In this document: one piece after another, positions 9,658 through 24,285 of the stretch
How positions within the stretch are numbered: the first letter of the stretch is position 1
Layout: each line of letters opens with the position of its first letter
Source of the DNA: Rickettsiales bacterium
GTDB lineage: Bacteria; Pseudomonadota; Alphaproteobacteria; Rickettsiales; UBA1997
Assembly: GCA_028688645.1 (NCBI GenBank)
Contig: JAQTXT010000002.1
Coordinates: 1 to 34,248 of the forward strand
Length of the DNA stretch: 34,248 bases
Reading direction: 5' to 3'
Translations under genes and position numbers: made by a program
Notes under the pieces: generated by a model
What the model was told of the DNA's origin: nothing
Databases searched by the model: none
Seen by the model: the letters and a program-made list of their open reading frames with translations, nothing else

Positions 9658-10500
9658 ATGAAAACTATTGCAGATGATTTAAAAACCAATTTTGAGCGAA
9701 ATACTACAAATATTATAAAGTGTTGGAAAATAACTCTAAAAGATGATATGGTTATTGGTTTTACAACAAATAATGAAAATTTTACTTACAACGAAATAAT
9801 ATATAATTCATTCTCCAGCAACGATATTACTAATATAAAAACCAATTTAGATATTGAAGAAGATAGTTTTGAATTTTCTAATATAATTTCAAGTAGTTTA
9901 ATATCAGCAAATGATATTTTAGCGGGTAAATATGATAATGCTTTAATAGAAATTTTTCTTTTAGATATAAAAAATCAGATTAATGGAAAAGTAATTTTAT
10001 TAACTGGGACAGTATCAGACATGGAATGCAAAGGTGATATATTCACAGCCAAAGTAAAAGGATTAAAAGATAAAATAAACAAAACAATTGGCGAAGTCTA
10101 TTCACCTTTATGTAGATGTAGTTTTTGTGATACAAAATGTGGATTAGATAAAACCAATCTTACATTTTCAGCAACAATCACTAATGTTTTAGATGATGTT
10201 TCATTCATAACGAATAATGAAACAATTTTAAATCAAAGTAGCGGATATTTTGACAATGGAATAATCGAATTTACTAGCGGAAATAATGACGGGCAGAAGA
10301 TAGAAATCAAACAATATGCCAATGGAACTTTTATTTTATCACTTAATTTACCGAATGAGTTAATGGCTGGAGATGATTTTAATGTTATTACTGGCTGTAA
10401 TAAACAATTTACCACATGCTGCAACAAATTTAGCAATGCTATAAATTTCAGAGGTGAACCACATTTACCCGGTATGAAAATTTTATTAAAGGTTATGTAA
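9658..10500 (+). CDS. DUF2163 / phage BR0599-type protein, homologue of the GTA distal tail gene (RcGTA g13-like)
   Basis: IKCWKITLKDDMVIGFTTNNENFTYNEIIY fits the DUF2163 start. The C-terminus CRCSFCDTKCGLDK...GDDFNVITGCNKQFTTCCNKFSNAINFRGEPHLPG fits the BR0599 signature. Confidence 0.8.
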   Translation: MKTIADDLKTNFERNTTNIIKCWKITLKDDMVIGFTTNNENFTYNEIIYNSFSSNDITNIKTNLDIEEDSFEFSNIISSSLISANDILAGKYDNALIEIFLLDIKNQINGKVILLTGTVSDMECKGDIFTAKVKGLKDKINKTIGEVYSPLCRCSFCDTKCGLDKTNLTFSATITNVLDDVSFITNNETILNQSSGYFDNGIIEFTSGNNDGQKIEIKQYANGTFILSLNLPNELMAGDDFNVITGCNKQFTTCCNKFSNAINFRGEPHLPGMKILLKVM

Positions 10501-10501
10501 T

Positions 10502-10933
10502 ATGTTTACAAGACAAGAAATCGTAGAACAAGCTAGAACTTGGGTGGGAACTAAATTTAGATATCAAGGAAGAATTAAACAAAATCAAAATAATAAAGGC
10601 GGCGTTGACTGCCTCGGTTTTATTATTGGGTTATGTAATGAAATAGGATATAAACAAAATAATAATTCAATCAGTTATTATGACACAATAATCTATTCAA
10701 AAAAACCAGATTATAATATATTATGGGAAAAATTTGCAGAAATTTTTTATTTGAAAGACATAAAAAATATTGATATTGGTGATATAGTTTTAAAAAAAAT
10801 TAGCAACAATCAATATCACTTAATGTTATATACTGGCAAAACATTAATACATGCTTCAGCAGCAACAAGAACAGTGGTAGAACATAGTGTAGATGGATTA
10901 CATAATTGCATAATATATTCAATGTTTCCTTAA
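10502..10933 (+). CDS. NlpC/P60 family phage-type cell wall peptidase (RcGTA g14-like)
   Basis: Catalytic Cys context GGVDCLGFI and His context YHLMLYTG...LIHAS. The start lies 1 nt after the stop of the preceding gene (TAATATG), matching the conserved g13-g14 order. Confidence 0.8.
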   Translation: MFTRQEIVEQARTWVGTKFRYQGRIKQNQNNKGGVDCLGFIIGLCNEIGYKQNNNSISYYDTIIYSKKPDYNILWEKFAEIFYLKDIKNIDIGDIVLKKISNNQYHLMLYTGKTLIHASAATRTVVEHSVDGLHNCIIYSMFP

Positions 10934-14618: not shown

Positions 14619-16976
14619 TTGTATATATTTATGATTAATTTTTTTTCAAAATTGTTATTTAAATTGCGCAATGTTTTAGCTTTTAAAAAAAATATTGTGA
14701 GTCGCTTTTTTCTAAAGAGAAAATTGTTGTGTGAAAAAAGATTCAAAATGGCATTTACACTGCTTGAGATGAGTGTAACTATACTGATACTTAGTATAAT
14801 TTTGATTGGTTCTATAAATTTTCAAATTTTTACTGATAAAAAATCCAAAGAAAACATAACGATTGATAAAATAAAAAGAATTGAACAGTCTATTAGAGAA
14901 TATTTTCTTGAGAATGAAAAATTACCTTGTCCTTCCGATCTTACTTTGTTAAAAACAAATGCTACTTATGGCGAAGAATTGAGGGTTGGCGGTATTTGTG
15001 AGGCTGCAAGTTCGGAGTTTCGTAAAGTTGATCTGATTTATGGTGGTGTTCCAACAAAAACTTTGGGATTAACTGATGATTATGCAGTAGATCCTTGGAA
15101 TAATAGAATTGCATATATAATAGAAAAAGGTTATGGCGATAATAAAATTTATTTAGTAGGAGATAGTGAAACTTTAATCATTAACAATACTTCTGGTAAT
15201 CAGATAACCAATAAGGCTGTTTATGTATTGGTTAGTGGCGGACAAAATAAAAATGGTGTTTTTAAAGACGGAACTCAATTACCAATTAATACGACATTGG
15301 CTGATAATGAAAACCTTTTTTCAACCAGTTTTGATAATATTTTTATAAAAGATATTAATACAAATTCTTTTGATGATATAGTAGCATTTAAGGATAAGGA
15401 AAATCTTATATTTAAAGATGATATGGAATCCTTGCCATGTACTTTAAAAGATTTAAGTGAATTAGATTCTGATTGGAATTATACTTCTTATGATTCTTGT
15501 GATAGTAGTGGAATTTGTGAACAAGGTACCGTTGTCGTATCTTTAAATGAGTGTCCAAGTGGTAAAATTTCAAAAAATCCTGACAATTCAAGTGTTTCTG
15601 GGGTTTCTTATAGACCAGTTAGAAAATGTTTAAAATACGGTCAATGGAGCGATATTATATTCCCTTGTATCGATGGGTGCGGTGAATCCAATATTGCAAG
15701 TATAGTAACTAACATGTTGCCAACTAGCGGTGAATTAGCAAGCTGTATCGATTTGAATTATTTAAAAAGGTGTAAACTTGGGGAAGAAATTGTATTAGAA
15801 TGCATTGGTGAAAACAGAATTGGTTATATAACATTAAAATGTCAGTCACCTGATGGCTTATGGGAGCATGTTAATGGTGATTGTTATGAAAAAGAACAAA
15901 CTAGTACTAATGTATGTCAAAATTCAGAATTAAATTCAAATATTAACAATTTCACTTTTTTAACTACCGTAGGAACCACACCAGCTTCTGGAGTGGTTTA
16001 TGGAGATTGTAGTACTGGCTATGAAGTGCAAAGTGGTGGAAGCCCTACAATAATGGCAAGTTGTCAAGCTGATGAAACTTGGAGTTTTAGTGGCGGTCCT
16101 TGTGTACTTCCTGGCGGAATTTGTAGTAATTCTATTATAGATAACAATACTGTGAATTTTATATTTCCTAATATTGCAAGTGGAACTACTGCAAATGGAA
16201 GCTCTCAGTGGGGTGGACAATGTAAAACGGGATATGGTGTTCCTCAAGGTGGAGATTGGAACTTAATGGCAACTTGCATTAATGGACTTTGGAATTATTA
16301 TGGTGGTCCTTGTGCTATACAATGTCAAAATAGTACTTTAAATGACAATACATATCATTTTTATTATACTACTTTAACTGGTTTGACATCTCAAGGTTTT
16401 ACACAAGGCGCAGATTCTTGTGCAACTGGTTATAATATAGATGGTGGTGTTTGGAATATGGTTGCAACTTGTTCTAGCGGTGGTATTTGGAGTTATACTG
16501 GTGGTCCTTGTGTGCAAAGTTGCCTTAATTCCGAGCTAGTTAATAATACCCTTAATTATGCCTTTACATATTCAACCACATATACAAATTCTGGAGCTAC
16601 TCTATGGGGTGATTGTGCTGATGGATATACACATACATCAGGTACTTGGACATATACTGCATCTTGTAGTCAAGGAGTGTGGACATATAGTGGAGGCGTT
16701 TGCAGCCTAACTGGTTGCGAAATATCCACTATAGGAACAGATTTATCCAATAGTAATTATGATAATGTTATATGGAAGGAATGTCGGAATCAAAATTGTC
16801 ATACCAATCAATTAATAGATATCACAAGTAATGCCGTCGATACTAATAAATATATACTACAAAATAGTTGTAAAGATGGTTATACTCCAAGCAGTGGAAC
16901 GAATGTTAAATTATATTGTAATTCAAGTAAAAATTGGCAATATGTTAGTGGAACTTCACAATGTTTACCGCAATAA
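14619..16976 (+). CDS. pilin-like protein with a C-terminal array of Sushi/CCP-like four-cysteine modules
   Basis: It carries AFTLLEMSVTILILSIILIG (prepilin motif plus helix). It shares LPCP, DPWNNRIAYI and NKAVYVLVSGGQNKNG blocks with 13709..14593, followed by tandem Cys-rich modules. The true start is probably TTG at 14724/14727 (after AAAGAGA) or ATG at 14748, not 14619. Confidence 0.75.
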   Translation: MYIFMINFFSKLLFKLRNVLAFKKNIVSRFFLKRKLLCEKRFKMAFTLLEMSVTILILSIILIGSINFQIFTDKKSKENITIDKIKRIEQSIREYFLENEKLPCPSDLTLLKTNATYGEELRVGGICEAASSEFRKVDLIYGGVPTKTLGLTDDYAVDPWNNRIAYIIEKGYGDNKIYLVGDSETLIINNTSGNQITNKAVYVLVSGGQNKNGVFKDGTQLPINTTLADNENLFSTSFDNIFIKDINTNSFDDIVAFKDKENLIFKDDMESLPCTLKDLSELDSDWNYTSYDSCDSSGICEQGTVVVSLNECPSGKISKNPDNSSVSGVSYRPVRKCLKYGQWSDIIFPCIDGCGESNIASIVTNMLPTSGELASCIDLNYLKRCKLGEEIVLECIGENRIGYITLKCQSPDGLWEHVNGDCYEKEQTSTNVCQNSELNSNINNFTFLTTVGTTPASGVVYGDCSTGYEVQSGGSPTIMASCQADETWSFSGGPCVLPGGICSNSIIDNNTVNFIFPNIASGTTANGSSQWGGQCKTGYGVPQGGDWNLMATCINGLWNYYGGPCAIQCQNSTLNDNTYHFYYTTLTGLTSQGFTQGADSCATGYNIDGGVWNMVATCSSGGIWSYTGGPCVQSCLNSELVNNTLNYAFTYSTTYTNSGATLWGDCADGYTHTSGTWTYTASCSQGVWTYSGGVCSLTGCEISTIGTDLSNSNYDNVIWKECRNQNCHTNQLIDITSNAVDTNKYILQNSCKDGYTPSSGTNVKLYCNSSKNWQYVSGTSQCLPQ
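15915..16715 (+). repeat. four tandem in-frame coding repeats of 65-69 codons (15915-16121, 16122-16322, 16323-16520, 16521-16715)
   Basis: Each unit reads C-x(30-32)-C-x2-GY-x(12-13)-C-x(4-5)-W-x6-C with 3-6 aa linkers. The units are diverged at the DNA level. Degenerate related modules flank the array. Confidence 0.85.
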
Positions 16977-18707: not shown

Positions 18708-20714
18708 TTATAATTCTTGGACAGACTCTTGAATAAGTTCTTGAGAAAAATGTCTATAAAATTGTTTTTCAGCACTTTTTGGTTCAATATGTACAGAGCA
18801 ATTATGCTCTTTTAACTTATCAATTTCTCTATCTCTTATTAAGGCTATTATAGAAATTGCAGTCTCTGGCTTTTTTATTTCAATAGTTATACTAATATCT
18901 TCCTCTGAAGCTCCTATTGTATTGCCTTTAATTAATAATTTTAATTCTATCGTATTCTCATCTTTCATTTTTTCTCTTACTATACATGGACAATTAACAT
19001 GTTCTCTACCATTTGGAAATTTTTCAGATTCTGGCAATTCAGTGATTTGAGAACTCAAATATAATTCTCTTCTTTTTTGATCTTCTATTTCCCAAACTCT
19101 ATTTTGTGCAATCAATAAATTTTCTTCATCTGAATATCTTTTTCCTCTTCTGTCTTCTAAATTTTTAAGTATCGCGACATTTAAGATTCTATTTTTTGCA
19201 ATTTTAAAATCCTTTTCATGTTTTTTTAGACTACTGTTTAATTGAGACAGAATTGTAGAACTATTTTGCTTTATTTCTTCTATATTTTCACCTTTTATTC
19301 CTTCTCTTACTATTGTTGTAATAAGTATTTTAATATTAGCAGTTTTGCTAGTTTCCTCTTCCTCTTCTTTTGTTTCCACAATTTCTTCTTCTTTTTCTTT
19401 TTTAACATCTTTTTCTTCAAGATATTTTGAAATCAAATCTTTTATTATTTCACTTAATTCTTCAAATGCAACTGCATCCAATATTCTATATTTACCATTT
19501 TTTCCTCTTTTTTCTAAAACTTCATTTTTTACCTGTTGTTTTAATAAAAATTGGATAAGCAAGAAATAATTCTTTTTCTTTTTTTCGCACTCCAATAGCC
19601 TTTTTATTTTATGAATTTCCTTTCTTAGTTCTTTTTTACTCTTTATTAATGGCAATATTTTAAAATTATTTTCCTTTGCAAATGCATTGTATATCACAAT
19701 TTTTTGTTTTAGTATTTCAAATTTCTCTCCTTTTGAATCTTCAAAAGAAACAGAATGAGTGTTTATTGCTTTTTCTACTTCTTCAAGTAATTCGATTGCG
19801 GAATTTTGTAATTTGATTAATTTTTCATTAATAATGATATTTTTTATATCAATTATTTTTGCAATATCTTCTTGTGCAATTTTTAAAATATTTTCTAAAT
19901 TCATTGCAAGAAAATCACTTTCCAGTTCTTGAATCTCGTTTATTGTTTCTGTTTTATTTTTTAGTAATTCTTTGTAATTTGGATTGTTTATTATTTCATT
20001 AAAAATTTCAAATGCTTCATCTAAAGATTGTATTAATTGTGAATATTGTTGCCAGTCAAAAAATAAACTTTGTAAAATTTCTGGAGTATTTAAAAGCTTT
20101 AATGTTATTTTTATTTTTTTTATGTGTTTATCTAATTCTGTTGCGAAAATTTTATCAATACTATCAATATTTTTTGATTCTAATAATTTTTTTAATTCAA
20201 CAACAAGTAATTTTGTTCTAAGAGGTTCCTGAAAAACTAATGACAAGTATGCATTGGGAGCAATTTCTGAAGACATTTTATCTAAGGAAACTTTAATTGG
20301 AGAAATTAAAGATATTATTGAAACAAAATACGGAGTAATATCTTCCTCAGCCTCCATTCTTTCATATAAAAAATCAAAAAATTGTGTAGGTGCCACTATA
20401 ATATGTATTCCAAATTTTGAGTTTATAAAAATTTTAATACATTCTTCAATTTCTTTTCTTGAGAACTTTTTATTCTTCAAAAATTGTGTCAATTTATTAT
20501 AATCTTTTAAAAAGTAATATTTTTCAGTTTTACCTTCTTCTATATAACTAGTAAAAATATCCCCATCATCCAACACTCTACTATCAAGTAATTTTCTTTT
20601 TAATGCTTGCTGAACTATATGTAATTGTTTTGAAAAAATTTTAACCATTCTATGTACAAAATCTGAAGGCGTCAATACTGACGTTTCTGTTAAAAGAAGC
20701 TCTTCATTATACAT
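18708..20714 (-). CDS. large hypothetical protein (668 aa, Lys/Glu-rich, predicted largely helical)
   Basis: Uninterrupted ORF with an ATG start. It has long heptad-like K/E/I/L-rich stretches and an acidic run (KEKEEEIVETKEEEEETSK). No catalytic motif recognised. Confidence 0.65.
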   Translation of the reverse strand: MYNEELLLTETSVLTPSDFVHRMVKIFSKQLHIVQQALKRKLLDSRVLDDGDIFTSYIEEGKTEKYYFLKDYNKLTQFLKNKKFSRKEIEECIKIFINSKFGIHIIVAPTQFFDFLYERMEAEEDITPYFVSIISLISPIKVSLDKMSSEIAPNAYLSLVFQEPLRTKLLVVELKKLLESKNIDSIDKIFATELDKHIKKIKITLKLLNTPEILQSLFFDWQQYSQLIQSLDEAFEIFNEIINNPNYKELLKNKTETINEIQELESDFLAMNLENILKIAQEDIAKIIDIKNIIINEKLIKLQNSAIELLEEVEKAINTHSVSFEDSKGEKFEILKQKIVIYNAFAKENNFKILPLIKSKKELRKEIHKIKRLLECEKKKKNYFLLIQFLLKQQVKNEVLEKRGKNGKYRILDAVAFEELSEIIKDLISKYLEEKDVKKEKEEEIVETKEEEEETSKTANIKILITTIVREGIKGENIEEIKQNSSTILSQLNSSLKKHEKDFKIAKNRILNVAILKNLEDRRGKRYSDEENLLIAQNRVWEIEDQKRRELYLSSQITELPESEKFPNGREHVNCPCIVREKMKDENTIELKLLIKGNTIGASEEDISITIEIKKPETAISIIALIRDREIDKLKEHNCSVHIEPKSAEKQFYRHFSQELIQESVQEL

Positions 20715-21684: not shown

Positions 21685-24285
21685 ATGGTAAGTATTGTAA
21701 ATTCAATTGAAAGTCTTGATGCTCTTATGAAAAAAGTTAAAGAAGCACAACGAAAGTTCGCTACTTATACTCAGGAGCAAGTCGATGCAATCTTCAAAAG
21801 AACAGCTCTTCTTGCAAATACAGAGAGAATTAGACTTGCAAAGATGGCTGTTGAAGAAACAGGAATGGGTGTTGTGGAAGATAAGGTTATCAAAAATCAC
21901 TTCGCCGCAGAGTATATATATAACAATTACAAGGATACAAAAACTTGTGGAGTTGTTGAAAAAGATTTAACTCATGGTATGGTTAAAATTGCTGAACCTA
22001 TTGGTATTATTGCTGGTGTTATACCTACAACAAATCCAACTTCAACTGCGATTTTTAAATGCTTAATAGCATTAAAAACAAGAAATGCAATAGTATTTTC
22101 TCCTCATCCAAAAGCTAAAAAATGTACTATTGAAGCATTGAAAGTTGTTGTTGCTGCAGCAAAAGCCGCAGGCGCTCCAGACAATTTAATTGGTTGGATT
22201 GATGAACCAACAATAGAGTTATCTAATGCTTTAATGAATCATCCAGACATTGATTTGGTTTTAGCAACTGGCGGACCAGGAATGGTTAAAGCTGCATATA
22301 GCTGTGGAAAACCAGCGCTTGGTGTTGGTGCAGGAAACTCTCCTGCAGTAATTGATGAAACTGCAAATATTGAAATGGCTGTATCTTCAATTATTTTAAG
22401 TAAGACTTTTGATAACGGTATGATTTGTGCTTCTGAGCAAGCAGTTGTTGTTGTTGCTGATAAATACGATGAAGTTAAAAAAGAGTTTGAAGTAAGAGGA
22501 TGTTATTTCTTAAAACCAGCTGAAAAGACTAAAATGGAAGCATTTATGTTCCCAGGTGGAAAATTAAATGCTGGAATGGTTGGACAATCTGCTTGCAAAA
22601 TTGCAGAATTAGCAGGAATAAAAGTTCCAGCTCTCACAAAAATTCTGATTGGCGAAGCAAAAGATATTTCAGAAGCAGAAGGTTTTGCTAAAGAAAAATT
22701 ATCTCCAATTTTAGGATTTTATAAAGCTGATAATTTTGAAGATGCCGTTAAAAAAGCTCACGACCTAGTAAATTTAGGCGGTGCAGGACATACTTCTATT
22801 TTATACACTAATCAACAAGTTCAAGATAGAATTGATTATTTTAGTAATATGATGAATACAGGAAGAATTTTAATCAATACTCCTTCTTCATTTGGTGGTA
22901 TTGGTGATGTATTCAATTTTACATTGACTCCATCTTTAACACTTGGTTGCGGTTCTTGGGGAAAGAACTCAGTAAGTGAAAATGTAGGTGTAAAGCATTT
23001 ATTAAATATGAAGACAGTTGCTATGAGAGAAGAAAATATGTTATGGTTCAAAGTTCCACCAAAGGTTTATTTCAAAAAAGGTGCGACTAGATTGGCGTTA
23101 GCTGAATTAAAAGGCAAGAAAAAAGCCGTTATCATCACTGATAAAATATTATTCCAATTAGGTATAACTAAAAAAGTTACTGACGAATTGGATAAAATTG
23201 GTGTAAAATACACAATTTTCTCTGATGTCGAACCAGATCCAAATTTATCAATGGTTAACAAAGCTATAGTTGTTGTTAGAAATTTTGAACCAGATTTAAT
23301 CATCGCAATGGGTGGTGGTTCACCAATCGATGCTGCAAAAATCGTATGGTTAATGTACGAACAACCACAGCTATCTTTCGCTGATGTTGCAATGAGATTT
23401 ATGGATATTAGAAAGAGAATTTTTACATTGCCTGATTTAGGTGAGAAAGCAGACTTAGTTTGTATTCCTACAACATCTGGAACAGGTTCTGAAGTTACTC
23501 CATTTGCGGTTATTACTGATGACTCAACAGGTGTTAAATATCCTTTAGCTGACTACGCATTCATGCCAACAATGGCAATCGTAGATCCTGATTTCGTTAT
23601 GACTATGCCAAAAGGATTAGCTGCTGCATCTGGTATTGATGCCGTTAGCCATGCCGTTGAAGCTTATGCTTCAATTATGGCAAGTCCATTTAGTGACGGT
23701 TTAGCATTAGAAGCCTTAAAATTATTATTCAGACATTTAGCTAAATCAGTTAATGAAGGAGCTGAATTTGACAGAGAGCAAATCCACTATGCAGCAACAA
23801 TCGCTGGTATGGCATTTGCCAATGCATTCTTGGGTATTTCTCACTCAATGGCTCACAAATTAGGTGCTCACTTCCATGTACCACATGGTATTGCGAACGC
23901 TTATGTTTTGTGCCAAATCATGAGATTCAATGCATCTGAAAAACCTACAAAACAAGCTGCATTTTCTCAATACAAATATCCTAATACAAAACACAGATAT
24001 GCTGAAATAGCTGATGCTTTGGAATTGGGTGGTAAGAACGATGATGAGAAATTAAACAACTTAATCAAAGCAATTCAAAACTTAAAAACTTCTGTTGGTA
24101 TTAAACTTTCTATGAAAGAAGCGGGTATCAAAAAAGAAGATTTAACGAAAGAATTGGCTAACGGTTTAGCAGAAGAAGCATTTGACGATCAATGTACAGG
24201 AGCTAATCCTAGATATCCTTTAATTTCTGAGCTTGAACAATTATATTGGAAAGCTTTTGAAGGCGAAACTGATTTTGATTTATAA
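21685..24285 (+). CDS. adhE: bifunctional acetaldehyde-CoA / alcohol dehydrogenase AdhE
   Basis: 866 aa. The N-terminal ALDH domain has the catalytic Cys context FDNGMICASEQ. The C-terminal Fe-ADH domain has GGGSPIDAAK and HSMAHKLGAHFHVPHG. Confidence 0.95.
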   Translation: MVSIVNSIESLDALMKKVKEAQRKFATYTQEQVDAIFKRTALLANTERIRLAKMAVEETGMGVVEDKVIKNHFAAEYIYNNYKDTKTCGVVEKDLTHGMVKIAEPIGIIAGVIPTTNPTSTAIFKCLIALKTRNAIVFSPHPKAKKCTIEALKVVVAAAKAAGAPDNLIGWIDEPTIELSNALMNHPDIDLVLATGGPGMVKAAYSCGKPALGVGAGNSPAVIDETANIEMAVSSIILSKTFDNGMICASEQAVVVVADKYDEVKKEFEVRGCYFLKPAEKTKMEAFMFPGGKLNAGMVGQSACKIAELAGIKVPALTKILIGEAKDISEAEGFAKEKLSPILGFYKADNFEDAVKKAHDLVNLGGAGHTSILYTNQQVQDRIDYFSNMMNTGRILINTPSSFGGIGDVFNFTLTPSLTLGCGSWGKNSVSENVGVKHLLNMKTVAMREENMLWFKVPPKVYFKKGATRLALAELKGKKKAVIITDKILFQLGITKKVTDELDKIGVKYTIFSDVEPDPNLSMVNKAIVVVRNFEPDLIIAMGGGSPIDAAKIVWLMYEQPQLSFADVAMRFMDIRKRIFTLPDLGEKADLVCIPTTSGTGSEVTPFAVITDDSTGVKYPLADYAFMPTMAIVDPDFVMTMPKGLAAASGIDAVSHAVEAYASIMASPFSDGLALEALKLLFRHLAKSVNEGAEFDREQIHYAATIAGMAFANAFLGISHSMAHKLGAHFHVPHGIANAYVLCQIMRFNASEKPTKQAAFSQYKYPNTKHRYAEIADALELGGKNDDEKLNNLIKAIQNLKTSVGIKLSMKEAGIKKEDLTKELANGLAEEAFDDQCTGANPRYPLISELEQLYWKAFEGETDFDL

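Follow-up and report, generated by a model that had tools for sequence, protein, structure and literature searches.

A ‘modular pilin’ combines an N-terminal pilin module with one or more further domains whose occurrence is not restricted to type 4 filament biology (Raynaud et al. 2021, PMC8179133). InterPro, as of 2021, held 1,219 such proteins in 264 architectures, with a catalogued cargo that includes TSP1, C-type lectin, and ALK/LTK glycine-rich domains (Raynaud et al. 2021, PMC8179133). PilB (vWA) and PilC (lectin) of Streptococcus sanguinis, for example, are tip-located modular pilin adhesins, with PilC stabilised by the small pilin PilA (PMC8179133; PMC9934059). The principle of an adhesion module grafted onto a pilin, that is, is already established. 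Considered here is the ‘Sushi-pilin’, a protein which has the composition of a modular pilin as so defined, and whose cargo, an array of modules resembling Sushi or complement control protein (CCP) modules, is absent from the published catalogue. It is encoded on the forward strand of a 34,248-nucleotide stretch of DNA (assembly GCA_028688645.1, contig JAQTXT010000002.1, positions 1 to 34,248) from a Rickettsiales bacterium, the whole of which is referred to here as the window.

A sequence-only reading of this DNA, made prior to the present analysis, knew of no described architecture in which a CCP-like array is displayed on a pilin stalk, and that appraisal stands as far as could be tested: none of the 264 architectures listed by Raynaud et al. 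(2021) contains Sushi (IPR000436 / PF00084), and a search of the literature available found no paper linking Sushi with pilins, nor anything relevant on PF00084 in bacteria. Like PilB and PilC of S. sanguinis, the Sushi-pilin has a class III signal peptide and a pilin module which carries a grafted adhesion-type module. Like PilC with PilA, it is accompanied by a smaller pilin partner, and its predicted role likewise is that of a tip-displayed adhesin. It differs from the modular pilins of Raynaud et al. in that about seven CCP/Sushi-like modules in tandem make up its cargo, and in that its pilin part belongs to a distinct, approximately 250-aa proteobacterial carrier family with a long leader (10-41 aa). 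The organism which encodes it, unlike that of the S. sanguinis systems, is a diderm, an uncultured Rickettsiales-like alphaproteobacterium, known here from sequence. Type IV pili (T4P) are encoded by some Rickettsiales lineages (PMC9352585).

Other comparisons are with large minor (pseudo)pilins possessing additional domains, such as CofB of enterotoxigenic Escherichia coli (ETEC) and GspK of type II secretion systems (T2SS), both of which have been proposed to sit at the filament tip (PMC8179133). Unlike the Sushi-pilin, neither of the two has CCP-like repeats: CofB, which assembles into trimers, possesses a beta-repeat plus a beta-sandwich domain, and in GspK the pilin fold itself contains an inserted alpha-domain. 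No sequence similarity to either was detected beyond the alpha1 helix. PilY1/PilC of type IVa pili (T4aP) is a functional analogue, as a variable adhesive module at the pilus tip. PilY1, however, is a non-pilin which docks via a beta-propeller onto the minor-pilin complex, whereas the Sushi-pilin array is covalently part of a pilin. On the side of the cargo, comparison is with eukaryotic Sushi/CCP/SCR (short consensus repeat) modules, as found in factor H, DAF/CD55, CD46, beta2-glycoprotein I, and factor XIII B. Shared with these are a length of about 60 aa, four invariant Cys, G-Y after Cys2, a Trp between Cys3 and Cys4, linkers of 3-6 residues, a beads-on-a-string arrangement, and a predicted all-beta fold. 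Not shared are the module start, ‘C-x-N-S-x-L-N-x-N...F-x-F’ in the Sushi-pilin, the very Gly/Thr/Ser/Asn-rich composition, the failure of single modules to reach the Pfam cut-off, and of course the attachment of the array to a bacterial pilin.

The N-terminal part of the Sushi-pilin is, as judged from its homologues, a pilin ‘carrier’ that is widespread and has had a variety of extracellular binding modules grafted onto it. A profile of this carrier, consisting of the N-terminal approximately 250 aa of 13 sequences and with conserved motifs LPCP...C, GxVPTKxLxL, DxWxxxIxY, AxYxLxSxGxNxxG, and FDDI, has 21 matches in the PDB, every one of them a type IV pilin or pseudopilin. The best are geopilin (6.5e-8), S. 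sanguinis PilE1 (1.3e-6), and GspG (5e-6), with Thermus PilA5, PilA, MshA, PilE, and TcpA further matches, and the alignments span alpha1, covering up to 111 positions in the case of PilA5. At E<=0.1, Pfam N_methyl is found in 12 of the 13 members and T2SSG, as a weak match, in six. The pilin-type N-terminus that had been recognised by the sequence-only reading is in this way borne out at the level of the family. Homologues of the carrier profile number at least 413 proteins at E<=1e-8, and across these the alpha1 helix, along with its Glu5, is conserved. Most are stand-alone proteins of 250-320 aa whose names in the source databases are prepilin-type or type II secretion, while the carrier is found fused as well to NHL/SGL β-propellers, FG-GAP/VCBS, DUF2341, Hint, and glycine-rich domains, and to another four-Cys repeat. 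In P0013 (889 aa), for instance, the carrier domain is followed by about a dozen copies of a different Cys-bounded repeat of approximately 55 aa (C..NWT.G.N.C...TC.NG...SG..C).

The open reading frame (ORF) of the Sushi-pilin, as counted from its first TTG, is 785 aa in length. Its true start probably is ATG 14631, as the product then opens MINFFSKLLFKLRN, which is identical to the called N-terminus of the orthologue P0003 and one residue off that of P0004. That start gives rise to a leader of 41 aa, which is unusually long. Leaders of the orthologues are 10-39 aa in length, with G or A as their last residue: those of P0003 and P0004 are 39 aa, the N-terminus MINFFSKLLFKL being conserved between these and the window protein, those of the remaining orthologues are 10-20 aa, and the leader of the partner pilin (below) is 7 aa. 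The prepilin motif KMA↓FTLLEMS, where the arrow marks the predicted cleavage site, occupies aa 43-52, with F46 at +1 and E50 at +5, and is followed by the hydrophobic tract SVTILILSIILIGSINF. Seen in full as ...KRFKMA↓FTLLEMSVTILILSIILIGSINF, the N-terminus displays what characterises a class III signal peptide, i.e., a leader ending in Gly/Ala, Phe at +1, Glu at +5, and approximately 20 hydrophobic residues. Residue -1 is Ala, with Gly being commoner at that position; leaders ending in Gly or Ala are the norm for class 3 signal peptides (Shahin et al. 2023, PMC9934059).

Following the carrier are approximately 500 aa of cargo, consisting of about seven four-Cys beta-modules: two degenerate, four canonical, and one divergent terminal module (Table 1). 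The strict signature C-x(28-34)-C-x2-GY-x(10-15)-C-x(4-5)-W-x6-C has exactly four matches, starting at nt 15915, 16122, 16323, and 16521, with no other match in the six frames of the window and none in 20,000 shuffles of the Sushi-pilin. The four modules and the signature of the sequence-only reading are, that is, correct as it gave them. These canonical modules are 61-64 aa in length, with Cys1-Cys2 spacings of 30, 32, 31, and 30 residues and linkers of 3-6 residues, and the Cys count of the protein as a whole is 37. In their four Cys, their length of approximately 60 aa, the G-[YF] that follows Cys2, the Trp kept invariantly between Cys3 and Cys4, and the shortness of their linkers, they conform to the CCP consensus. 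Identity to module 1 is 39-42% among the canonical modules and 19% for the terminal copy, and Tandem Repeats Finder detected no DNA-level tandem repeat across the modules. Given that low identity along with the absence of a DNA-level repeat, the module duplications are old, rather than an assembly artefact or the result of recent slippage. An opposite-strand ORF inside the module region, 15960-16247 (-), was rejected as spurious given the conserved protein of the + strand.

Degenerate copies had been suggested to lie both before and after the array. After the array this holds, with the terminal fifth module scoring 29.3 bits (E 1.6e-9) against a hidden Markov model (HMM) of the canonical modules, a score which is partly circular as the seed alignment includes that module; the AlphaFold2 (AF2) confidence score, pLDDT, is below 50 over much of the extra C-terminal region. 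Before the array it holds only in part. That is, the copy there (CKLGEE...GDC), that of pre-module B, matches the module HMM over its C-terminal 18 residues only, at E 1.7 here versus 1.7e-5 to 7.5e-5 for its equivalents in P0006 and P0007, and four-Cys regex matches to it are found in orthologues. Pre-module A (E 1.9 against the module HMM; pLDDT 50-75) may, tentatively, be a very divergent CCP-like module.

We conclude, from profiles and predicted structures, that the modules are of the Sushi/CCP superfamily, or at least have its fold, and form a divergent bacterial subtype. A module profile, i.e., an alignment of 42 modules with invariant columns C1, C32, C50, W56, and C63, has 79 matches in the PDB, and among the 60 of these listed, 59 are CCP proteins. 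The best is MASP-1 (E 6.7e-6), followed by DAF (2e-5), with C1r, FXIII-B, C4BP, and factor H also matched, and in these alignments Cys2, G-Y, Cys3, Trp, and Cys4 line up with their CCP equivalents. Going by that alignment of Cys2, Cys3, and Cys4, and by that only, disulfide topology would be 1-3/2-4. The same profile, as searched against 1.84 billion representative proteins, has only 415 matches at E<=1e-3, and those ranking next after the family itself are mostly animal-looking multi-CCP proteins, such as P0031 with its 26 Pfam Sushi repeats. The Pfam Sushi model (PF00084; gathering score 20.7 bits) meanwhile is passed by six of seven orthologues, namely P0003 (80.5 bits, E 1e-22, in five stretches), P0006 (51.9), P0004 (48.7), P0002 (36.3), P0008 (31.9), and P0007 (26.9), with P0005 under the cut-off at 19.2 bits. 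AF2, as run on an eight-sequence full-length alignment, predicts helices at residues 14-28 and 39-64, and is reliable in the module region only (pLDDT 75-90). Used as a Foldseek query against the PDB, this full-length model has 63 matches at E<=1e-3, the top 50 of which all are CCP arrays, including factor H (2.7e-11), FXIII-B (6.4e-11), β2-glycoprotein I (3.6e-9), and DAF (4e-7), and superposition of two modules on factor H CCP19-20 gives a TMt of 0.51-0.62. The fold check which had been proposed for these modules thus comes out, on predicted structures, in favour of CCPs.

Seven full-length orthologues, P0002-P0008, were found among 5.8 billion proteins searched, and these are 34-70% identical to the Sushi-pilin over 79-99% of the query. 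All are metagenome or metagenome-assembled genome (MAG) proteins from singleton or near-singleton clusters, without informative names, and two are in species-representative genomes, labelled as ‘Rickettsiales bacterium’ and ‘uncultured Rhizobiaceae bacterium’. Scanning of genome contigs found only two related loci, and scanning of metagenome contigs re-found only one contig already known. Among close orthologues the order of module types is constant, 1(n)-2-3(n)-4, and copy numbers vary, so that a complete protein has about 5 to 11 canonical modules. Past the type-4 module there are only 2-3 further residues in P0002, P0003, and P0004 and a single one in P0006, P0007 and P0008 end on other module types, and it is in the window protein that the divergent fifth terminal module is found.

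The Sushi-pilin furthermore is one of a pair. Its upstream neighbour, the 294-aa partner pilin, is over the N_methyl cut-off (24.5 bits) and aligns with the carrier family, and its gene ends 37 nt before ATG 14631. Pilins of 294-310 aa are found directly upstream of the Sushi-pilin also in loci L003, L004, L006, and L008 and on a contig from JGI. As the pair is present in at least six loci with otherwise differing flanks, the two genes overlapping in three of them, partner pilin and Sushi-pilin are a conserved two-gene cassette. A promoter and terminator scan was uninformative in this AT-rich DNA, finding 30 promoter-like sites versus 21.9 +/- 5.0 expected, and no terminators.

Taken as a whole, we consider it fairly probable, if well short of assured, that the Sushi-pilin is a modular minor type 4 pilin which displays a CCP rod as an adhesin. 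As a prepilin it would be inserted into the inner membrane, a prepilin peptidase whose gene lies elsewhere in the genome would cleave and N-methylate it, and its modules would be disulfide-bonded in the periplasm. By way of its alpha1 helix it would then enter a type 4 filament as a minor subunit, i.e., one of low abundance, the likeliest position being at or near the filament tip, together with the presumably co-transcribed, 294-aa paralogous pilin. From there the CCP rod, which would be roughly 25 nm long if extended like animal CCPs, could project from the filament and, as adhesin or spacer, reach a ligand at the surface of a eukaryotic host, of prey, or of a substrate. How far it reaches, or else its specificity, may be tuned by the number of modules, which varies among orthologues from about 5 to 11.

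A number of observations count against so reading the protein. The window Sushi-pilin scores only 11.7-13.5 bits against Pfam N_methyl (PF07963 / IPR012902), which is under the gathering score of 21.2 bits, and it is under the Pfam Sushi cut-off as well, with no whole-protein match at E<=1. The profile-HMM check that the sequence-only reading had proposed consequently gives a divided answer. That is, what the window protein fails to pass, orthologues pass: Sushi in the six noted above and N_methyl in three, i.e., P0005 (22.5 bits), P0008 (22.3), and P0006 (21.4), the latter named ‘prepilin-type N-terminal cleavage/methylation domain-containing protein’ by JGI, while P0002-P0004, at about 19 bits, are narrowly under. 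The Sushi identity that had been read from the modules therefore holds at the level of the family, by orthologues, PDB profile, hhalign, and Foldseek, but not for the window protein as judged by Pfam, and not for the first third of the module, which has no alignment to canonical CCPs (the first 23 columns are unaligned by hhalign). The AF2 model of the pilin head is unreliable, with pLDDT below 50 over most of residues 1-236, and provides no usable head. The leader, at up to 41 aa, is far longer than the leaders of T4a pilins. Prepilin peptidase, assembly ATPase, platform, and secretin genes all are missing from the window, and no pilus machinery gene lies within 10 kb in any related locus examined. 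As both pilins of the cassette keep Glu5, neither is marked by its sequence as the tip-most subunit. Lastly, the metagenomes in which related sequences are found are those of soil, gut, and other sources.

Some of these same observations are what would be expected were the Sushi-pilin not a filament subunit at all but instead a class III-anchored or secreted pilin-like protein, its signal peptide serving for membrane insertion and cleavage only and its array remaining periplasmic on the inner membrane or being released, as with archaeal binding proteins that have class III signal peptides, or with the many orphan N_methyl proteins in other bacteria. There is no pilus machinery near the gene or its relatives, carrier genes are orphans among housekeeping genes, the surroundings of stand-alone carrier pilins on long contigs likewise lack pilus machinery, the leader is atypically long, and the protein is very bulky for a pilin. 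Yet bulky modular pilins have been experimentally shown to be presented by pili (PMC8179133), alpha1 and its Glu5 are conserved in the at least 413 homologues and correspond to the helix through which filament subunits of solved structure assemble, a sub-complex within a filament would fit with the conserved pairing with another pilin, and a 25-nm adhesion-type rod would have no obvious role in a periplasm about as wide. We view this alternative as unlikely, if as one to be taken seriously. A gene upstream of the L003 cassette which is flagged as PilM_2 turned out to be FtsA (84.6 vs 46.1 bits), and provides no pilus linkage.

Improbable, from our perspective, is that the Sushi-pilin is a minor pseudopilin of type II secretion, or of another type 4 filament that is not a T4P, with its modules at the pseudopilus tip, e.g., contacting substrate or secretin. 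GspG indeed is among the best PDB matches of the carrier (5e-6), T2SSG is matched weakly by 6 of 13 carrier homologues, and certain of the carrier homologues go by the name of ‘type II secretion system protein’ or ‘pseudopilin PulG’ at NCBI and JGI. Those matches, however, cover the shared alpha1 helix only, and it is from that helix that the automatic names derive. No locus has gsp genes in its vicinity, long repeat arrays are not a feature of the known T2SS minor pseudopilins, and the cargo of this same carrier (propellers, FG-GAP, CCP) is typical of extracellular binding modules.

Returning to the cargo of the proposed minor pilin, its modules could be a bacterial Cys-rich beta-module that is merely convergent on the CCP pattern, without Sushi homology and with another disulfide topology. 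Individual window modules indeed are under the Pfam threshold, module 1 alone, for example, scoring 14.1 bits (E 0.063). In an hhalign comparison with 26 true CCP modules, 33 of 62 columns are aligned, representing the Cys2-to-Trp half only. The N-terminal part, with its consensus C-x-N-S-x-L-N-x-N...F-x-F in place of the canonical C-P-x-P-x-x-x-N-G, has no CCP counterpart, and a test for the canonical N-terminal segment failed. AF2 predicts module 1, from the 42-module alignment, to be all-beta with a pLDDT of 91.4, and CCP modules (C2b, DAF, CD46, C1s, IL-15Rα sushi) rank first among its Foldseek matches (TMq 0.45-0.57), but with E-values that all exceed 0.09, i.e., which are not significant for so short a query. 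Against convergence, three independent profile tests (Pfam Sushi on the orthologues, the PDB search, and the search of representative proteins) point to CCPs only, hhalign gives a probability of 95.4% (E 1.7e-8), Foldseek aligns 46-58 of the module's 63 residues and in so doing reaches into the N-terminal part, multiple modules together bring Foldseek E-values down to 1e-11 with CCP arrays exclusively as the top 50, and Cys2, Cys3, Cys4, GY, and Trp all align with CCP equivalents. Convergence we take to be quite improbable.

Very improbable indeed is mimicry of host complement regulators, i.e., binding of C3b/C4b or recruitment of host factors, so as to evade immunity, by an array gained via gene transfer from an animal host. 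The modules are 13-25% identical to any animal CCP and have a bacterial-specific N-terminal part, it is metagenomes (soil, gut, and others) and not vertebrate pathogens that have yielded the relatives, CCP modules are generic protein and glycan binders, and there is no sign of recent transfer (no DNA-level repeat, with the higher GC of the module-encoding stretch going with its Gly/Thr/Ser-rich composition). In its favour are the resemblance of the best matches outside the family to CCP arrays and complement regulators of animals, and a RickCE-like domain encoded in the window, which is typical of Rickettsiales that manipulate their hosts. The host-mimicry device that had been suggested is unsupported.

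As for the organism itself, it is an uncultured, AT-rich alphaproteobacterium of the kind that is labelled Rickettsiales. The GC content of the window is about 25-30%, its BipA is 80-88% identical to MAG proteins labelled ‘Rickettsiales bacterium’, and its gene content is housekeeping and gene transfer agent (GTA)-like, together with the RickCE-like domain. That domain is the catalytic part of a 310-aa protein (window 7733-8665, - strand; 31.5 bits vs a cut-off of 27), RickCE being a family of Rickettsia deubiquitinase-type effectors, and the syntenic gene in L004 also has a weak match to YopJ-type acetyltransferases. The RickCE-like gene, as a sequence match, points to manipulation of a eukaryotic host, and host association is plausible. 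Together, the BipA identity and this gene point, if weakly, toward the probable host-associated alphaproteobacterium that the earlier reading had assumed.

CCP-like arrays are seen as well on other pilus subunits. P0073, P0106 (L009:2655-4889), P0127, and P0151 each have an N-terminal TrbC/VirB2 domain, that of a type IV secretion pilin and thus of a second, unrelated type of pilus subunit, with TrbC scores of 26.9-30.0 bits vs a cut-off of 27.9, along with Sushi arrays that score up to 330 bits in 11 repeats. Two of these four TrbC-Sushi proteins possess an ALK/LTK-type glycine-rich domain, and three ankyrin-repeat genes adjoin P0106. P0093 (L010:304-4314; 1336 aa), from a gut metagenome, begins with 300 aa that are homologous to the partner pilin of the window, and has two ALK/LTK glycine-rich domains along with modules that are Sushi-like (27.4 bits). 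It is thus the partner pilin itself that serves, in another lineage, as the carrier of cargo. P0158 and P0174 (L007:10001-12976), as retrieved by the module profile, have pilin N-termini of different families, which suggests that these are independent pilin-CCP fusions. Pfam Sushi is matched at 88.8 bits by P0174, which has no pilus genes nearby, and is not matched at E<=0.01 by P0158.

We regard it as a tentative possibility, somewhat on the doubtful side, that bacteria which are uncultured and probably associated with eukaryotes repeatedly have Sushi/CCP-like arrays as a display cargo on their pilus subunits, something not recognised before. The carriers in that case would comprise at least three unrelated type IV pilins (the Sushi-pilin family, P0158, and P0174), the partner-pilin lineage of P0093, and TrbC/VirB2 pilins. 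If so, then a eukaryote-like toolkit of adhesion modules would have been shuffled between two non-homologous filament systems, which bears on whether the CCP fold is bacterial in origin or instead was captured from hosts.

Modular pilins explain how simple filaments gain functions, and to these the Sushi-pilin adds a class of module, i.e., beads-on-a-string CCP arrays, that is known mainly from the complement regulators and selectins of animals, with reports also from apicomplexan surface proteins. Rickettsiales surface adhesins and host-contact devices are poorly known outside of the classical pathogens, and the Sushi-pilin is a candidate for how environmental relatives of these bacteria attach to hosts or prey. 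In addition, for tracing where the fold originated, the family usefully provides bacterial CCP-like domains whose N-terminal half is distinctive. Nothing is overturned by these findings, and the proteins are rare (singleton metagenome clusters). What the sequences show is the architecture, the relationships of the family, the conserved pair of genes, and the modularity of the carrier, while each of the functional steps is one that we infer.

Table 1. Features of the Sushi-pilin cassette, in order of position within the window.
Feature	Coordinates	Strand	Basis or remarks
Partner pilin, 294 aa	13709..14593	+	Paralogue of the Sushi-pilin's pilin domain; 7-aa leader MKKKYTG↓FTLLELS; no module array
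Sushi-pilin ORF	14619..16976	+	Mechanical ORF list, stop codon included; gene caller's start is TTG 14724
Probable leader peptide	14631..14753	+	41 aa, basic, ending ...KRFKMA; first 14 residues as in P0003, 1 differs in P0004
Mature N-terminus, F(+1)TLLE(+5)M then hydrophobic alpha1-N helix	14754..14831	+	Predicted by sequence reading; profile alignment to alpha1 of solved pilins
Carrier pilin domain, approximately 228 aa	14754..15437	+	13-sequence alignment; PDB matches pilins only
Pre-module A, Cys-rich, ending ...RKCLKYGQWSDIIFPC	15438..15668	+	CCP-like C-terminal motif C-x3-G-x-W-S-x5-P-C
Pre-module B, CGESN...GYITLKCQSPDGLWEHVNGDC	15678..15884	+	Degenerate four-Cys module; two extra Cys in the window protein
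CCP/Sushi-like module 1	15915..16103	+	Signature; type 1, expanded to 2-5 copies in orthologues
CCP/Sushi-like module 2	16122..16313	+	Signature; 70.6 bits vs module HMM
CCP/Sushi-like module 3	16323..16511	+	Signature; 76.1 bits vs module HMM
CCP/Sushi-like module 4	16521..16703	+	Signature; 65.2 bits vs module HMM; terminal in most full-length orthologues
Extra C-terminal region	16716..16973	+	Short Cys-bounded segment plus divergent fifth module (CHTNQ...CKDGY...C...W...C)

Genes for sugar modification are found near certain of the orthologues. Positioned 3' of the Sushi-pilin in L005 (2350-5120) are genes for an epimerase/dehydratase, a DegT-type aminotransferase, and a PglD-like acetyltransferase, which together resemble a bacillosamine-type pathway; 3' of it in L008 (8561-9577) is an epimerase gene, followed by the contig end; and downstream of it in L003 (9033-9797) is a gene for a family 2 glycosyltransferase (GT2). 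These genes may hint at pilin glycosylation, a pattern that is absent from the window. N-x-S/T sequons in the modules are not enriched (5 observed vs 5.6 +/- 2.0 expected).

Elsewhere in the window, a gene resembling those for baseplate hubs (Phage_phiJL001_Gp84_N plus BR0599) has an NlpC/P60 gene after it (9658-10933, + strand), a pair that is kept in L004 and which resembles distal genes of alphaproteobacterial GTAs, with no other phage genes around. A 668-aa, Glu/Lys-rich ORF without a Pfam match (18708-20714, - strand) possibly encodes a lineage-specific or effector protein. Lastly, a bifunctional AdhE-type aldehyde/alcohol dehydrogenase of 866 aa (21685-24285, + strand) stands out for its GC of 0.35-0.36 versus approximately 0.25 in its flanks, which hints at fermentative metabolism or instead acquired DNA in this Rickettsiales-like genome.

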